Positions 53,962 to 64,000 of a DNA stretch of 64,000 bases are shown piece by piece (the first letter of the stretch is position 1; the number at the start of each line of letters is the position of its first letter). The stretch lies in the IMG/VR virus record IMGVR_UViG_3300037280_000066, positions 54,061-118,060 of that record. One strand, 5' to 3'. The position numbers and the translations under genes were made by a program. A model generated the notes under the pieces. The model did no database searches and was not told the origin of the DNA. It saw nothing but the letters and a program-made list of their open reading frames with translations. The stretch comes from a virus. Lineage: Duplodnaviria; Heunggongvirae; Uroviricota; Caudoviricetes.

Positions 53962-56145
53962 TTAACTTAATGCTGATGTACCACACCATACTGCACCAGT
54001 TGTTGTTAAGTCATTATTGTAAATTCTTGCCCTTGCATATCTATGAACCATTGGTGATGTAAGATTTGCAATATTTACTATAGGAGATTTTGCAGTTCCT
54101 CCTGAACTTGATACAGCACTTCCTGCTTGTGTATAAGTAAATGTTGTACCTGATGCCACTGCTGTTATTACATATGAACCAGTTGCAAAGTTTACACTAT
54201 CTGTTACACCTGAAATATATACAGTCATACCAACTTGTAAATTATGAGCTACAGCCGTAGTAACTGTTACAACAGTTGTTGCTCTTGAAATTGCACTAAT
54301 ATCAGTTATTGTTTCTTGAGTTGTAGTTGTATATGTTCTGACAGTTTCAGCATACAATATATTGTCAGCAGATTGTTCAATTGCTAAAATACCTTGTTTA
54401 TCCATTCTGCATGTTGCTACAAATGTACTTCTAGCATATGAAGTTCCTTGAACGTCAATAGCACCAGTAGTATTATTTTTACCACTAGCAATATTTGTTG
54501 TAAACAATGAACCCTGAGTTGTAATTGCTGTATTGTTTGCAGTTACATATCCTGTCATAGTAGTCATAGGTGGAGCATCATTTGAAATAGTTAATATCCC
54601 TGCTACTGTACCACTTGTATATGTAAATGATATTTTCATTAGTTTAAATCCTAATCCAACAGCATATAAACCTGTAGTGCTTGCACTAGACAATGAACCA
54701 TTATTACCAGTTAAATTAATAAAATTTAAATTTATCCAGTTTACTCCATCATTTGAACCTTTTATGAAAACATTTCCTGCCCATACACCAGATAATTGAA
54801 CTGTAGCATATCTATAACCAGAAACATCATAAGCAACAAGCATATCTGCACTTGAACTTAAACTTGCTAATGGAATATTCACACAAGGCTGTGGAGCTAC
54901 TGAAAAATTTAATCCAGAAAATCCTGCTTGTATTTGTAATGCATCTGCATTATTAATAAATATATTATCTATATCTATAGTGGAAGAAGATGCAGGAACT
55001 GATGCTCCATTAATCCAACCACACCATAAATCCATATATGCATAAGGACTTGGAATATGATTTCTATGTGTTGCAACTAAAACTTCATTTATATAGAATG
55101 CACAATATTCCTGTGCTAATTCAACTCTATATCTATGCATACTAGCTGTTGTTAAACCTGATGGAATAGTTACTGTAGTTTGTTCAGTATCTACTAATGG
55201 ATTTGCATAAGAAGTTTCACACATAACTACTGTATTTGCTGATGCACCATCAAATCTAAACCATGCTCTTGCCTGTGGAACACTAGGGTCATCTGACATA
55301 CCCATATAACATGTTTGATTTGCTATTCTTTGAGTTATAGATGCTTGTGCCATCATAATCATTGGGCCATAATCTACAGTTCTTTGAATAGAGGTTTTAG
55401 CATTTGCAGTTGTACCAGATGCTATAGAAACCTTACTATTTGCTACAGTTATACCTCCACCTGTTCCAGTAGAAGGTTTTAATTTTGTTACAGTTGATGT
55501 TCCTGTACCTCCAACACCAGTATATGCTGTATCTAATTCAACTTCTGTATCAGAAATAACTCCTGCTACTTGACCCCAAGCAGTTTCAGCATCTGTATTT
55601 AATTTTAAGAAATCTCCTAATTGAATAATATTAGAACCTGTAAATCCTGTTCCAGTTACAGTTATACTTCCATTAGTAAATGTTGCAGTTCCTATACTTT
55701 TACCTAAAATTATACCTGTGAATCCATCTCTAAATCCACCTTCATCAGTAGTAATAGCCCCTCTTGTTGCAAGGTTTCCATCACTATCAATTGTTACATT
55801 TCCTTTTTCATTTACACCTAAATTTTGAGTACTAATTCCTGGTTCTGGAACGAATCCACCCCTTGATATAGCTAGATTTTCAGCTAAAATAGAACCATCA
55901 ACATCTATGGCTAATCTATCTTCTGATGTTGCATTTTTTATTTCAACAGCACCAATTTGAATATCTGATACTTGAACTGTTGTATCTGTATTTAAAGTAT
56001 ATGGTGTCCATAATCCAGAATGATATATTTCTCTTGTTTCTGTATCTGTATAATAAATAATTGCACCATCTGTAACTATACTAGACTTATCATCTACTGA
56101 TAAACCAATAAATTCATTATTTTTTGGAATAAACTTTATAGACAA
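53962..56145 (-). CDS. virion fibre/appendage protein, paralog 2
   Basis: RBS AGGAGG then TTG gives MSIKFIPK..., matching MAIKFVPK of 56497..58974. Thr/Ser/Gly-rich, TTAVAHNLQVG beta-module. Confidence 0.6.
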   Translation of the reverse strand: MSIKFIPKNNEFIGLSVDDKSSIVTDGAIIYYTDTETREIYHSGLWTPYTLNTDTTVQVSDIQIGAVEIKNATSEDRLAIDVDGSILAENLAISRGGFVPEPGISTQNLGVNEKGNVTIDSDGNLATRGAITTDEGGFRDGFTGIILGKSIGTATFTNGSITVTGTGFTGSNIIQLGDFLKLNTDAETAWGQVAGVISDTEVELDTAYTGVGGTGTSTVTKLKPSTGTGGGITVANSKVSIASGTTANAKTSIQRTVDYGPMIMMAQASITQRIANQTCYMGMSDDPSVPQARAWFRFDGASANTVVMCETSYANPLVDTEQTTVTIPSGLTTASMHRYRVELAQEYCAFYINEVLVATHRNHIPSPYAYMDLWCGWINGASVPASSSTIDIDNIFINNADALQIQAGFSGLNFSVAPQPCVNIPLASLSSSADMLVAYDVSGYRYATVQLSGVWAGNVFIKGSNDGVNWINLNFINLTGNNGSLSSASTTGLYAVGLGFKLMKISFTYTSGTVAGILTISNDAPPMTTMTGYVTANNTAITTQGSLFTTNIASGKNNTTGAIDVQGTSYARSTFVATCRMDKQGILAIEQSADNILYAETVRTYTTTTQETITDISAISRATTVVTVTTAVAHNLQVGMTVYISGVTDSVNFATGSYVITAVASGTTFTYTQAGSAVSSSGGTAKSPIVNIANLTSPMVHRYARARIYNNDLTTTGAVWCGTSALS

Positions 56146-59010: not shown

Positions 59011-59047
59011 AATATAAAAGAGTGACTATAAAACCATAGTCACTCTT
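59011..59047 (-). terminator. intrinsic terminator closing the glycosylation/modification operon
   Basis: AAGAGTGACTAT (59018-59029) / ATAGTCACTCTT (59036-59047), U-rich tail on the - strand. Confidence 0.75.
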
Positions 59048-59059
59048 ATACTCGTTAAA

Positions 59060-59863
59060 TTATGCTTGTTGTGCTAAATAACATTGTCTACAAAGAATAT
59101 CTTGACTATCATCAAGTAAACCTGCTTGAACTTTTTTCATTTCTTCTGACTCTACAATTTCTTGCCATGATTGTGTGAATAAATTACCTAAAACATGTTG
59201 TAAACCAAAGTCTGAACAACATAGTACACACATACCATTAGGTAGAAGTAAAGCCCCTCCATCAGGATAATCAAACATAAACTTATGTCCACACTTGATA
59301 TTTCCTTTTAAACTTGAAGATTTGACTTCATCCTGAACCTCAATTTTTCCTGCCCTATCATAAATCATTGCTTTTTCACTTTGATATATAAGATGTTTAA
59401 TTTCATTATGTAAATCTCCAAAATGATGATGAAATTTATATATTCCATTTATAGGATTCTTACAAACATATTCAAGTAACTCTTTATATTGTTGAGTCAT
59501 TGGTACAGTTGTTTTACCATTATTATCTGGTAAATGTACTGAGAAATAATCAAACTGAATATGTTTAATTTGATTATATGTATCAATAGTCATACCCACA
59601 AGTGTTGTACTAAATAAAATTCTATGACCTTTACTTTTAGCATACCAAACCATTTCAACCCAATCAGGATTAATACAAGGTTCTGAAAATCCTGCAAAAG
59701 ATATTGTGCTGTCAATTGGCATTTTATCAATAACTAATTTAAAATTATCTAATGATAATTGTTTTACTGATGATTGATATTGTTTTTTTATAAGATACTG
59801 TGGACAATACTTACAATTAAGAACACATGTTGCCATAGTTCCAACTTCTAAAAATGCTGACAT
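59060..59863 (-). CDS. radical SAM protein with SPASM/twitch-like C-terminus
   Basis: CVLNCKYC (CxxxCxxC), FAGFSEP, STTL, C-terminal CGH...CVLCCSDF...LGNL...CRQC. Confidence 0.88.
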   Translation of the reverse strand: MSAFLEVGTMATCVLNCKYCPQYLIKKQYQSSVKQLSLDNFKLVIDKMPIDSTISFAGFSEPCINPDWVEMVWYAKSKGHRILFSTTLVGMTIDTYNQIKHIQFDYFSVHLPDNNGKTTVPMTQQYKELLEYVCKNPINGIYKFHHHFGDLHNEIKHLIYQSEKAMIYDRAGKIEVQDEVKSSSLKGNIKCGHKFMFDYPDGGALLLPNGMCVLCCSDFGLQHVLGNLFTQSWQEIVESEEMKKVQAGLLDDSQDILCRQCYLAQQA

Positions 59864-59874
59864 TCAATTTCCTC

Positions 59875-60516
59875 CTATACGTTATTTAATGTGCGATACA
59901 TGAAGTCTTGGCTCTTAGTAATTTTAATATCTCCCTGTCTTAATTCTGGTGATATTACTATTAAAGCCAATCCTCCCATCGTCATATTTTGACTTATTAA
60001 ATCTCCTGCACAAAAATCTGTGTCTATGAAGTGTACATGAGGACAGATATTCCAATCAAAATCACATATTGCTTTTCTTGAAGGAGTATACCAAGAATCA
60101 TGTATAAGTATAATCATATCTTTTTTAGGTTTTAATTTTGATATACTTTGAATGTCTGTGTAAACACCATTATACTCATGGTCTGCATCTATAATAACAA
60201 GACCAATTTCTTCACTACCATTGTTAATATTTTCTACAAGGATAGGTACAGTAAGTGCTGAATTACCTAATATAAATTCCACATTAGTGAATTGTTCAAT
60301 ATTAACAATGCAAGAATGAGTTACATCACAAGAGTAAACTTTTTTGAAGTGTTGAGATAAAGACCTCAATGAACCTCCACAAAAAGAACCTATTTCAATT
60401 GCACTGTTTTTTTTATCAATCTTACTTAAGACTTGTTGTAAAATTGTTCTTTCAGCAGGTGACATTTGCCACAATACTGAACCATCATATATCTTTTCTA
60501 CATCTTTAATATTCAT
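59875..60516 (-). CDS. class I SAM-dependent methyltransferase (Methyltransf_24-like)
   Basis: IEIGSFCGGS, GNS, IIDADHEY..V..DI, LIHDS. Confidence 0.85.
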   Translation of the reverse strand: MNIKDVEKIYDGSVLWQMSPAERTILQQVLSKIDKKNSAIEIGSFCGGSLRSLSQHFKKVYSCDVTHSCIVNIEQFTNVEFILGNSALTVPILVENINNGSEEIGLVIIDADHEYNGVYTDIQSISKLKPKKDMIILIHDSWYTPSRKAICDFDWNICPHVHFIDTDFCAGDLISQNMTMGGLALIVISPELRQGDIKITKSQDFMYRTLNNV

Positions 60517-61922
60517 TATTCTTTCTCCTTTCTACCAAGCCAAGACCCTGCAAAATGATGTATTGTGTAGGTGCTAGGTGTAGGAGTTGCTACAAGTTTT
60601 GAATGGTCATAAGGACAAAATACTTCTGTTGGATAGATTACCACAGATTCTCTTAAGAATGTAAATCCATCACCTTGACCAACAATCCAAGGAAATGATA
60701 ACCTTGTTATTGTATGAGTATTAGGTATTGGATTAGCTTCTAGTTTTGCTGTGTCATAATAAGCTAACAACATCTTAATCCATGGGTGACCAATCTCTGC
60801 TCCCATAGTAGCAGTAATCAAGAATTTATCTGCTTCATGCCCTGTAAACGCTCTATGATTTAGGAATTCATCTAAGTTTTTAACAACTTCAACATCTGAA
60901 TCCATATAAATACCACCATAGGTATACAAAGCCCATAAACGCACAAAGTCTGTTACGAATGCCCATTTCTTTTTATCATAAGCTTCCTTAACATATGCAC
61001 AACAATTGATATCAAAATTAGTTTCATTCCATTCTATTATTTCGTAGTCTGGTAAATACTTAGTCCAACTGTCAAGGCATTTTTGAATCTTAGCAGGTTT
61101 CTCTGCTCCACCAAACCAACAGTAGTGAATAGTTTTAGGTATATGTTGCATCATTAATGATTTCTTTAAATCATAAATTGTTTGCCATCTATTCCATATT
61201 TCATAGAATGGAACTTGTTTAGTATTCCAAGGTTTAGCACCTGCGTAGTGCATAATCTTAATATTCTCAACTTTGATTTCTAAAGATGTTGATAATGATG
61301 TGTTGTATTTATAGTGCATTTTCTTAATTTTTTCATTACATGTTATGTTAAAAATGTCTTGGTCATGGCAGTCATAGAATTTTGTGTTTGCCATGTTAAT
61401 CCATGTGTCACATAAGTTTAACTTTCTGATTGCATCTAAGTTAATTAAGGTTACCCCTGCATTAATATAGTAAGCATCTTCTGGTATACCTAAATTAGTT
61501 TTGTAACCTTGTGGTAATCCAGTATCTTCTACTCCTGCAAGTAAGTATCCTTCCATCTCTGTATTATAGAAGTGAGATATATCACTAGCAACTATAGCAT
61601 CTGCATCAATATATAAAACCCTATCATCATTAATGATGTTTGGTAGAAATAAACGATATAGAGTGTATTTACTAAATCTAGTATCTACGTTAATGCCACT
61701 AGGCATATATTCTTCATACATTTTTAAAAGATTGATATACTCATAAGTATAATCTTCTCCACACATTGCACAGACAGTATCAAATTCATCTAAATGACTT
61801 TGTTCTAGGTTGTCTGATAACAAATAAACTTTCGTTGGCACTTTATTTTTAACAAATAAAGCATACATTTCTACTGCTACATAAGTTGACCAATTGGCAC
61901 TAAATGCTATAGCTACATTCAT
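60516..61922 (-). CDS. glycosyltransferase fusion: N-terminal GT8 + C-terminal GT32 (DxD)
   Basis: GT8: YRLFLP, LYIDAD, YINAGV, HDQD, HYAGAKPW. GT32: IPKTIHYCWFGG, WAFVTDFVRL, GGIYMDSDV, HHFAGSW. Confidence 0.9.
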   Translation of the reverse strand: MNVAIAFSANWSTYVAVEMYALFVKNKVPTKVYLLSDNLEQSHLDEFDTVCAMCGEDYTYEYINLLKMYEEYMPSGINVDTRFSKYTLYRLFLPNIINDDRVLYIDADAIVASDISHFYNTEMEGYLLAGVEDTGLPQGYKTNLGIPEDAYYINAGVTLINLDAIRKLNLCDTWINMANTKFYDCHDQDIFNITCNEKIKKMHYKYNTSLSTSLEIKVENIKIMHYAGAKPWNTKQVPFYEIWNRWQTIYDLKKSLMMQHIPKTIHYCWFGGAEKPAKIQKCLDSWTKYLPDYEIIEWNETNFDINCCAYVKEAYDKKKWAFVTDFVRLWALYTYGGIYMDSDVEVVKNLDEFLNHRAFTGHEADKFLITATMGAEIGHPWIKMLLAYYDTAKLEANPIPNTHTITRLSFPWIVGQGDGFTFLRESVVIYPTEVFCPYDHSKLVATPTPSTYTIHHFAGSWLGRKEKE

Positions 61923-61955
61923 AATATTCTACCCCTTCTAATTTTCAATTTTCGA

Positions 61956-62627
61956 CTATTTTTTTACCCATACAAAGTAATCTTCTATTACATTTGCATC
62001 ATGTATACTACTATAAAATGCTTGTGTTACAATTTCATATTCAGAGAATGGTGATACTAAGAATTCAACTTGTTCATATGTAAAACACATACATGTAGCA
62101 TGGTTAATATATCCACCAATTCTATTTTCAAATTTTGGAAAATGGATACAGGCTAGACCTGTTGATTTTAATGCTTCTTTAATTTTATTCAAAATTAAAA
62201 ACTGGTCTTCTTCATTATTATGTTGTAATACTTGTAAACAATATATGAAGTCTACAGTTTCAGACCCTTGATATTCATCTCCTATTTGGTATATTGCATT
62301 TGTAATTCCTGAATTGATTAATCTTTCTTCTGCTTTTTTTAATACAGCAGGAGTAATGTCTAAGCAAGTCATATGCTTACATTCTTTAGCTGTATATTGG
62401 GCAACTCTTCCATCACCACAACCATATTCTAAAATAGAGTCAATTTTTTTATTACCAGTTCTGAATTTGTATTCTTTAATCAAACTTTCAGCATTAACTC
62501 TTCCAGTTTCATTATATAGCTCTTCTGTTTCAGTTGGTGAAAAATAGTCTCTGCTATTGCTTTTTAAGTTATTATCCTGTAAATCCCTATAAAGATTATG
62601 TGTTACACTTGAAACATACTTTTCCAT
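61956..62627 (-). CDS. class I SAM-dependent methyltransferase
   Basis: LEYGCGDGR, CLDIT, DFIYCLQVLQH. Confidence 0.85.
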   Translation of the reverse strand: MEKYVSSVTHNLYRDLQDNNLKSNSRDYFSPTETEELYNETGRVNAESLIKEYKFRTGNKKIDSILEYGCGDGRVAQYTAKECKHMTCLDITPAVLKKAEERLINSGITNAIYQIGDEYQGSETVDFIYCLQVLQHNNEEDQFLILNKIKEALKSTGLACIHFPKFENRIGGYINHATCMCFTYEQVEFLVSPFSEYEIVTQAFYSSIHDANVIEDYFVWVKK

Positions 62628-62736
62628 TTTTTAAATCCACCTTTTTTCTAAAATTTGTATTTTGTTGTAACGCTGTATTCCCTTATATTATATGGTAGTG
62701 GTTTCCCATGAAAGTTTAGTTTCATCTGCTTCTGGC

Positions 62737-62768
62737 AAAAAAAACCCCCTTATCCTTTTTTAAGGGGG
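62737..62768 (-). terminator. intrinsic terminator (conditional, overlaps an alternative hairpin)
   Basis: On the - strand: CCCCCUUA-loop-UAAGGGGG followed by U8. Confidence 0.8.
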
Positions 62769-62804
62769 CTTGAGAAATTAATCCCAAACCCCCTTATCTG
62801 TTTG

Positions 62805-63177
62805 TATTGCAACCATATAGCCAAGAGGAATACCTTGAGATAATTGAATTACCCCTCATAACCTGCTTCTTGGATTTCATCGAGTCTTGCTATCCTAATT
62901 TCTAAATCCTGAAACTTCCTCGAAAGGAAGTGTAAAAAGAAATTTGTGTTCTGAAACCTGAATCCTGATGTTTGAACTTTGAACTTTCATATTGTGTCCC
63001 TTATGGACTTCTTTTAATCACTATTATATAGTGAACATATGTATTATCTGTTAAGATAATATTCTTGTTCTTCTAAAAAATAAGAATATCAAATTCTGAT
63101 TTTATTAAATCACCAGTTATATTTTTACCCAAAATATTAAGGGAATTCAAATTCAAGGTTTTCATATGATTGCAATA
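62805..63177 (-). ncRNA. putative structured non-coding RNA (~373 nt) directly after the 213-aa gene
   Basis: No ORF in the track. 14-bp end-to-end stem containing a G-U pair that works only on the - strand. Several internal hairpins including a UUCG tetraloop, and a 7-nt periodic array. Confidence 0.7.
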
Positions 63178-63187
63178 TCTTTATTAA

Positions 63188-63829
63188 TTATCCTTCAATT
63201 GTGATTCTTGTTATTACATTGCTTTCACTTAAAACGAAGTCTACCTCAGAGTTGAACTGTTCAATGCTATCTTTCAATGCCTTGATTTTCTCCCCTAATT
63301 TTAGAACATCTAACACTTCATGCTGATTCTGTTCTAAATATGGTTTGCTAATAGCTTCAACTTCATCTGCTGTTGCTTTTTGCTTTCCTTCTTTTCCAAG
63401 TGTTGTAAGTAATAATTCATCAAGCTTGATTTGTACTGCATCATTTGCTCTTTGAACAGCTACTAATGCTGATTGGTATTGTCTTTCCATATGTGAAAGA
63501 AGTAATATTTCATAAGAAATAGATTCTTTTCTTTCAATGGCTTCTGCTACTGTCATTTCTTTACCTGCAATTGTTACTTTTGAGTTTGCATTGCTTGCTA
63601 CTATTGCTGACTTGATTCTCTTTCTTCTTTCAGTCAAATCAACTACGCTTTGGTAACTTGCTTCTGCTTTTGCTGAATACTCAGCAGGTGTGTCAATGTT
63701 GTTAACTTTCTTTGCACTTTTCTTATATGAAACTATAAGACTTGCATCAGAGATTGCTCTTTCAATCCTACTATGTAGAAGTTTTAACTCTGCTAATGCT
63801 CTTTGAATTGACATTTCTGAATTTGCCAT
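63188..63829 (-). CDS. conserved-type hypothetical helical protein (213 aa), candidate partner of the downstream RNA
   Basis: RBS AAGGAG, own promoter. Internal repeat MSIQRALAELK / MTVAEAIERK, SYQSVVDL..RRKRIKSAIVASNA. Confidence 0.85.
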   Translation of the reverse strand: MANSEMSIQRALAELKLLHSRIERAISDASLIVSYKKSAKKVNNIDTPAEYSAKAEASYQSVVDLTERRKRIKSAIVASNANSKVTIAGKEMTVAEAIERKESISYEILLLSHMERQYQSALVAVQRANDAVQIKLDELLLTTLGKEGKQKATADEVEAISKPYLEQNQHEVLDVLKLGEKIKALKDSIEQFNSEVDFVLSESNVITRITIEG

Positions 63830-63887
63830 ATTACTCTCCTTTTATTCTTTAATTATTATTCTTGTATGTGTTCTTTCTTACTCTCTT

Positions 63888-63916
63888 ATCATACCACACT
63901 CTGAACAATTTGTCAA
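63888..63916 (-). promoter_or_regulatory. sigmaA promoter driving the 213-aa gene + RNA
   Basis: On the - strand: TTGACA (63916-63911), 17-nt spacer, TG-N-TATGAT (63893-63888). Confidence 0.85.
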
Positions 63917-64000
63917 GCTTTTTTAGACCCTTATAATTTCACCATTAGCAAAGGTCAATTTGCCATCCAAATACAAATCAAGAATATGTTTGTTCATCAT

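Follow-up and report, generated by a model that had tools for sequence, protein, structure and literature searches.

A predicted masked terminator between a conserved phage protein-RNA cassette and a glycosylation operon

The locus described here raises the question of what becomes of transcription that passes from a conserved phage gene and its structured RNA towards an operon of glycosylation enzymes, where two RNA hairpins share one strand and only one of them has the form of a terminator. An earlier note on this DNA proposed an attenuator in which RNA folding or protein binding decides read-through into the operon. The window, the whole stretch of 64,000 nucleotides that was analysed, covers positions 54,061 to 118,060 of a 182,060-bp IMG/VR phage record (IMGVR_UViG_3300037280_000066) with an estimated completeness of 92%. 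All features given below lie on the - strand. In the direction of transcription the order begins with a tail-tube-type gene, an intrinsic terminator (window-equivalent 64811-64787; genome C1:118847-118871) and, starting 34 nt after it, an Anp1-like glycosyltransferase gene (window-equivalent 64753-63923; genome C1:117983-118813). A near-consensus sigma-70/sigmaA-type promoter (63888-63916; TTGACA-17-TATGAT with an extended -10 TG) then precedes the gene for a 213-aa protein (63188-63829; phrog_1491), the first of its transcription unit. Behind this gene lies a conserved structured RNA of about 370 nt (62807-63177) with a closing stem, a 7-nt periodic array and a fold z-score of -5.5. The gap between the 213-aa gene and the enzyme operon is 560 nt. 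The operon itself (59060-62627) consists of four genes, encoding in order a methyltransferase (223 aa), a GT8+GT32 fusion (468 aa), a Methyltransf_24 protein (213 aa) and a radical SAM/SPASM protein (267 aa), and its next terminator, which is unmasked (59019-59046; 12 bp, -15.4 kcal/mol, pair probability 0.97), falls exactly at the operon end. The enzyme operon lacks a good sigma-70-type promoter: a sigma-70-like promoter scan from the U8 tract (see below) to the operon gave no match, and a perfect -10 TATAAT at 62687-62692 is preceded by a -35 that matches at best 3/6 positions. The TATAAT is aligned in a close relative of the phage (L130), and a weak promoter for the enzyme operon at 62692-62687 is possible. 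The window contains no tRNA genes.

The element between the RNA and the operon is built from three arms. A 13-mer (GAUAAGGGGGUUU / GATAAGGGGGTTT) occurs at 62798-62786, in arm A (62782-62798), and again at 62754-62742, as arm C; these two copies in the window are also the whole count in the genome. The count expected by chance is 0.06 per window, and two copies were seen in 0 of 100 shuffles. Arm B (UCUCAAGCCCCCUUA, 62761-62775), the complement of the 13-mer, lies between the copies and is the strand common to both helices. All 15 nt of B pair with A, and 62771-62761 can alternatively pair with C. The A:B hairpin, formed by UAAGGGGGUUUGGGA (62796-62782) as 5' strand, a UUAAUU loop and UCUCAAGCCCCCUUA, is a gap-free helix of 15 bp with two G-U pairs and a 6-nt loop; its energy is -25.7 kcal/mol and no U-tract comes after it. 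The B:C hairpin, with UAAGGGGGUUU (62752-62742) as its 3' strand, is a perfect 11-bp helix with 5 G-C pairs and an 8-nt loop (-16.4 kcal/mol). A U8 tract (62737-62744) overlaps and follows the B:C stem, so that this arm pair has the composition of an intrinsic terminator, a G+C-rich hairpin with a U-tract immediately after it, and it is called as such by the terminator scan. As in an attenuator, an alternative helix takes one terminator strand, with A:B occupying all 11 nt of the terminator 5' strand. The closing stem of the upstream RNA ends, at its last pair, 6-8 nt before the start of arm A and does not overlap with it. Runs of G5/C5 are rare in this genome of 32% G+C (34 in 182 kb), and three of them lie here within 60 nt. 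The three-arm arrangement is more than chance. Most of this geometry had been set out in the earlier note, and the two repeat copies flanking an inverted copy, the 15-bp hairpin with its two G-U pairs and no U-tract, the distance of about 7 nt from the closing stem and the mutual exclusion of the two hairpins through arm B were all recovered. The terminator too is real and followed by U8, but it is 11 bp long and not the 8 bp counted before.

Other origins or uses of the repeat were considered. A simple tandem duplication was rejected, as the likeness of the two 44-nt periods stops past the 13-mer. A terminator serving the opposite strand was also rejected, there being no converging + strand gene within 45 kb. 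No further copy of the arm A complement, which could act as an antisense partner in trans, was found in the genome.

Folding of the RNA strongly favours one of the two helices. In prefix folds mimicking transcription the energy minimum is A:B as soon as B is complete, and this does not change when C and U8 are added. The mean pair probability of the terminator is 0.001-0.002 with 100 nt of upstream context. In the full 461-nt intergenic RNA the penalty for enforcing B:C is 8.6 kcal/mol, and arm A is then left essentially unpaired, with no alternative partner in cis; the barrier from A:B to B:C is 12.3 kcal/mol and the reverse barrier 3.0. RNA folding as the sensor was rejected on these thermodynamics. 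When the upstream 100 nt were subjected to dinucleotide shuffling, 4 of 1000 shuffles masked the terminator as strongly. The genome-wide comparison set comprised 30 terminator-like hairpins, the B:C hairpin of the element and 29 others. Pair probabilities of 0.79-0.99 in context are kept by 28 of these 29, and the one exception, likewise masked, is a weak (-7.3) match inside a long ORF. The element is therefore predicted, from the one-sided energetics of A:B and the masked terminator, to be a designed-looking exception whose default is read-through and not termination. Of the proposed attenuator the exclusive helices and the position between a conserved structured RNA and an enzyme operon stand, but the claim that folding or protein 'decides' has only partial support: the balance is one-sided, and an element that could decide was neither found nor seen to be conserved.

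The likeliest explanation, tentatively given rather less than an even chance, is that arm A is a built-in antiterminator which acts in cis to disarm the terminator and needs no sensor. Host RNA polymerase would start at the strong promoter at 63916 and read the 213-aa gene and the 370-nt RNA. Arm B, as it emerges, would at once be captured by arm A in the 15-bp hairpin, so that when arm C and U8 emerge the terminator helix could not form. The polymerase would then run on into the methyltransferase/glycosyltransferase/radical-SAM operon as far as the unmasked terminator at 59046. The element would in this way couple the enzyme genes to the cassette promoter, or at most keep termination at a low and constant level. 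What the analysis shows is the structures with their energies, that they are unique in the genome and that the hairpin is conserved; that host polymerase would behave as the folding predicts, with no factor intervening, is what we infer.

The gene content around the element gives such an antiterminator a possible use. The order of the genes suggests that the glycosylation set is split by the cassette of promoter, 213-aa gene and RNA, with the Anp1-like glycosyltransferase upstream and the methyltransferase, GT8/GT32, methyltransferase and radical SAM genes downstream. In a phage without the cassette (L145:2621-6043) the same glycosylation gene types, the Anp1-like one among them, make up a single unbroken operon, and the cassette therefore looks like an insertion into a glycosylation operon. 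The glycosylation genes of L130 are split the same way. As the cassette divides a set that is contiguous in L145, continuity of transcription across it would be useful. Three points speak against the built-in antiterminator. Unwanted termination would be more easily lost through the U-tract or the stem than through a 15-bp decoy; two perfect helices with an intact U8 are the usual signature of a switch; and a terminator that is never used does not explain why arm C and U8 are the best-conserved part.

L130 is the only close relative that spans the element. Its protein is 74% identical to the 213-aa protein, it has the same downstream operon (GT1, GT8+GT32 and methyltransferase genes), it carries YomU/V/W-type tail genes, and its promoter at the same place matches the consensus at 12/12 positions. 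At the position of A:B it carries a different hairpin, GGGAAGGUA...UACCUUCCC, followed by UAAAAAACGAAUAAGGGGGUUUUUUUUGCCA. The segment of arm C and U8 is identical at 31 of 34 bases and is the best-conserved intergenic stretch, compared with an identity of ~55% in the hairpin region and ~40% in the sequence beyond. The L130 hairpin keeps its pairing by compensatory changes. The B':C pairing of L130 reaches no more than -4 to -6 kcal/mol, and no terminator is called there by the scan. Between the window and L130 the hairpin and the arm C/U8 sequence are thus conserved and the terminator helix not, and the retention in one close relative of both helices, as expected of an attenuator, was not observed. 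For the built-in antiterminator, whose basis is this single relative and fold predictions, it is supportive that L130 retains the hairpin with changed arms though its terminator helix is weak.

More distant relatives differ in what follows the RNA. In L138 and L140 (66% and 63% protein identity) one plain terminator lies 12-15 nt past the closing stem, and in L138 a strong promoter (TTGACT-17-TATAAT) for the next gene comes after it; this combination of a plain terminator with a strong promoter also supports masking in the window. Behind the RNA of L007, L013 and coliphage T5 no terminator was found, and what comes immediately after it is an ORF, a tRNA gene or a promoter. Contigs with homologues at 87%, 80% and 72% identity end short of the element, and for the first operon gene no relative exceeds 54% identity. 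A scan of viral contigs for arm C and U8 gave 0 matches, a metagenome scan gave the L130 contig and three unrelated generic terminators, and a scan with the 16-mer TCGATGAAATCCAAGA gave mostly chance matches, L013 being the sole new one.

It is highly improbable that the arrangement has no function and is a recent local 13-nt copy beside an ordinary terminator, awaiting loss by drift. The occurrence of the arrangement in one genome only would agree with this, as would the generic CCCCCUU-loop-AAGGGGG-U8 terminators in unrelated metagenome contigs. However, copying of an arm alone gives neither the four extra pairs outside the repeat (GGGA/UCUC) nor the 6-nt loop, L130 has a hairpin at the same position with compensatory changes, and the masking was reproduced in so few of the 1000 shuffles (4).

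The pattern in L130 bears more directly on an explanation in which A:B is a protective or processing hairpin that would form the 3' terminus of the RNA once released and/or the 5' terminus of the operon mRNA, although this too is unlikely. Arm C would then be a single-stranded SD-type element that either binds 30S as a stabiliser or serves a short UUG leader ORF as its ribosome-binding site, and the B:C complementarity would be a by-product of A and C copying one SD-like sequence. L130 keeps a strong hairpin and the single-stranded AAUAAGGGGG-U8-UUGCCA, and not the B:C pairing. Both arm A and arm C strongly resemble an SD, and their duplex with the 16S 3' end (GAUCACCUCCUUUCUA) has an energy of -13.2 kcal/mol. 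Arm C in this respect exceeds four real ribosome-binding sites of the phage, which are weaker at -8.5 to -11.4 kcal/mol, and its context is like that of genuine phage sites (CGAAUAAAAGGGGG, AAAACGAAUAAAAGGAG). In Bacillus mRNAs 5' hairpins and STAB-SD sequences protect against RNase J1. Like a Bacillus-type 5' stabiliser, arm C is strongly complementary to the 16S 3' end and serves no proper gene, as only a 16-codon UUG ORF comes after it. This candidate leader ORF (62688-62738) would begin at a UUG 6 nt after the G5 of arm C, a spacing present in both genomes; the SD, the spacer and UUG-CCA are common to the window and L130, and the remaining peptide differs. The putative peptides (16 and 23 codons) share Met-Pro only, however, the comparison is one of two genomes, and a perfect G+C-rich 11-bp helix leading directly into a pure U8 is a textbook terminator. 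A hairpin at an RNA end accounts well for L130 but not for the perfect B:C and U8 of the window.

Conditional attenuation of the enzyme operon is possible. In the form considered here, which is doubtful though second to the built-in antiterminator in probability, a factor in trans would hold arm A as it emerges, B would pair with C, and a stop at U8 would limit the operon; the factor might be the 213-aa protein or a complex assembled on the RNA next to arm A, or it might come from the host. Two perfect helices with one shared strand, an intact U8 and otherwise rare G5/C5 runs are consistent with such a switch, and this is the sole masked strong terminator in the genome. It occupies a leader position before an operon that has no good promoter and that ends in a terminator, and arm A lies within 6-8 nt of a conserved RNA with a platform-like 7-nt periodic array. 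Set against these points, the terminator helix is not maintained in L130, and the cassettes of T5, L007 and L013 have no terminator behind them, from which it follows that attenuation is not part of the conserved function of the cassette. Arms A and B are moreover separated by only ~20 nt of synthesis, and a factor would therefore need to be pre-loaded.

The search for a sensor also yields no support for a factor in trans. No cis competitor for arm A was found in the upstream RNA, and no conserved leader peptide: attenuation by way of a 28-codon ORF (62880-62794) that stops inside arm A was rejected, since the ORF has no SD, lies within the conserved RNA and has its ATG changed to ATA in L130. 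An Rfam cmscan of 61500-64000, with E up to 10, gave only chance matches to miRNA, snoRNA and lncRNA models, and no known leader family (T-box, riboswitch, PyrR-type) was recognized by covariance models. Inspection of the sequence at arms A-C revealed no GAG/UAG triplet arrays of the TRAP or HutP type. The 7-nt periodic yAAR array (~62990-62939, 6-8 units) lies 130-190 nt upstream of arm A, within the closed RNA and without overlap with the arm. With a pI of 6.0 (homologues 5.1-5.8) the 213-aa protein is mildly acidic, and fold comparison gave no informative match for it. In order of probability the built-in antiterminator comes first, then conditional attenuation, then an RNA-end, stabiliser or leader-ORF element, and last the absence of a function.

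The cassette itself is more surprising than the masked terminator, which is a new instance of an already known kind of element. Homologues of the RNA follow a homologous gene at 10 other loci (IMG/VR, JGI, Logan, NCBI), coliphage T5 included. In the 11-sequence RNA alignment compensatory double changes occur in 14/23 consensus pairs, and the yAAR array is in register in 11/11 aligned homologues, T5 among them; the A/T columns that recur at each seventh position are invariant (alignment A3, columns 301-350). To judge from its periodicity, the array looks like a binding platform or track for a multimeric protein or factor. The T5 cassette consists of T5.085 and an unannotated gap of ~360 nt with a fold z of -5.6 (L143:2495-3500; NC_005859 43141-44143), and a literature search on T5.085 or an RNA at that place in T5 found nothing. 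The cassette is conserved in phages ranging from SPbeta-like ones of Firmicutes to coliphage T5. The protein family is present in 743 phage records, from phages of Salmonella, Escherichia, Pseudomonas, Vibrio, Bacillus, Clostridium, Lactococcus and Erwinia. The neighbours of the gene-RNA pair vary by locus and include tRNA genes, PhoH, HU, ClpP or glycosylation genes; the pair therefore behaves as an autonomous cassette. The family gene always has its own strong promoter, and the T5 member belongs to the early region, with RNase H, exonuclease and tRNA genes close by. In the IMG/VR relatives L013 (2060-2170 on the - strand, and upstream of its gene) and L003 (5190-5245) tRNA genes flank the cassette; the tRNA that follows within ~30 nt of the RNA in L013 recalls the tRNA-rich neighbourhood of T5.085. 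In another relative (L141:845-870) an additional G5/C5 hairpin, GGGGGAAAUAUUAUUUCCCCC, lies after the stop codon of the gene and before the RNA begins.

The 213-aa protein belongs to no Pfam family, and a protein atlas search with it returned unnamed clusters only. Its AF2 model is helical (pLDDT 89.5) and contains no known RNA-binding fold. The only structure match that stands out is PDB 3kdq, the function of which is itself unknown (Foldseek E 0.017; VIA Z 11.2, rmsd 7.7). The PHROG/GenBank label 'tail fiber protein' is doubtful for this family, as the genomic contexts do not fit. It is conceivable, though very unlikely, that the T5.085-family protein and the heptad-array RNA together form a co-transcriptional sensor, in which the assembled particle would cover arm A, the terminator would form and expression of the glycosylation operon by host polymerase would be switched off. 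If this were true, the locus would hold an attenuator controlled by an RNP, a kind not described for phages.

How much of the transcription of the operon depends on arm A would further depend on the polymerase. Upstream on the same strand, an 835-aa ORF (genome C1:144048-141541; window-equivalent 89988-87481) carries the YonO-type motif NGADTDGD, and this ORF, together with the YomU/V/W-type tail genes in L130, identifies the phage as an SPbeta-like phage of a Firmicute. The late genes of SPbeta form one operon that is read by the single-chain RNA polymerase YonO, which has no flap domain, the part on which multisubunit polymerases rely for hairpin-dependent termination; terminators themselves were not assayed in that study (Forrest et al., 2017; PMC5467207). 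Strong terminators lie within the late structural cluster of the present phage at 59019-59046, 53191-53218 and 43193-43217 and at genome C1:118847-118871. After the unmasked terminators at 64811, 59046, 53218 and 43217 the next gene starts 34, 45, 26 and 77 nt on, too little space for a promoter in at least three of the four cases, and late transcription must therefore pass these terminators. Such read-through of terminators in the late cluster fits the YonO-type polymerase ORF. By analogy the late polymerase of this phage would ignore terminators, B:C included, and host polymerase would need arm A to pass. If the phage polymerase does ignore them, the terminators in the region act on host polymerase only. 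Arm A would then matter for transcripts from the 63916 promoter, extending their unit from the end of the RNA to 59046.

If the masking works as predicted, a self-contained cassette of promoter, gene and RNA can lodge in a phage operon and still leave the genes behind it within reach of transcription, its terminator being disarmed by a decoy strand rather than deleted. Were the element conditional instead, an undescribed and very widespread phage protein-RNA module would be tied to the control of virion glycosylation genes. Either way the locus offers a clean three-arm element with which the responses of host and YonO-type polymerases to one terminator can be compared.

The attenuators of Firmicutes (trp/TRAP, pyr/PyrR, T-box and the bgl/sac RAT with LicT/SacY) resemble the phage element in that the 5' strand of the terminator pairs with an upstream segment and in that the leader of an enzyme operon lies downstream of a strong promoter. 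They possess a sensor site of their own that overlaps or competes with the antiterminator, whereas none was found in the phage element, which has no Rfam match and neither GAG/UAG repeats nor a RAT-like sequence at arm A. Its energy, unlike theirs, lies far to one side, and its terminator helix is not conserved in L130. The 5' stabilisers of Bacillus include the STAB-SD of cryIIIA and 5' stem-loops such as those of the phage SP82 and ermC leaders. The phage element may be likened to them in having a strong hairpin and a single-stranded 16S-complementary sequence with no obvious gene, but the Bacillus stabilisers lie at mapped 5' ends and the SD-like sequence of arm C instead bears a U8 typical of terminators. 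Leaky or suppressed terminators within phage operons are similar in that the outcome is fixed by RNA folding alone. They set a ratio of abundant upstream to scarce downstream products, and the present element likewise lies between a strongly expressed gene with its RNA and enzymes in low demand. Leakiness in these terminators usually comes from a weak stem or U-tract, whereas here a dedicated 15-bp decoy shares the strand of a strong terminator.
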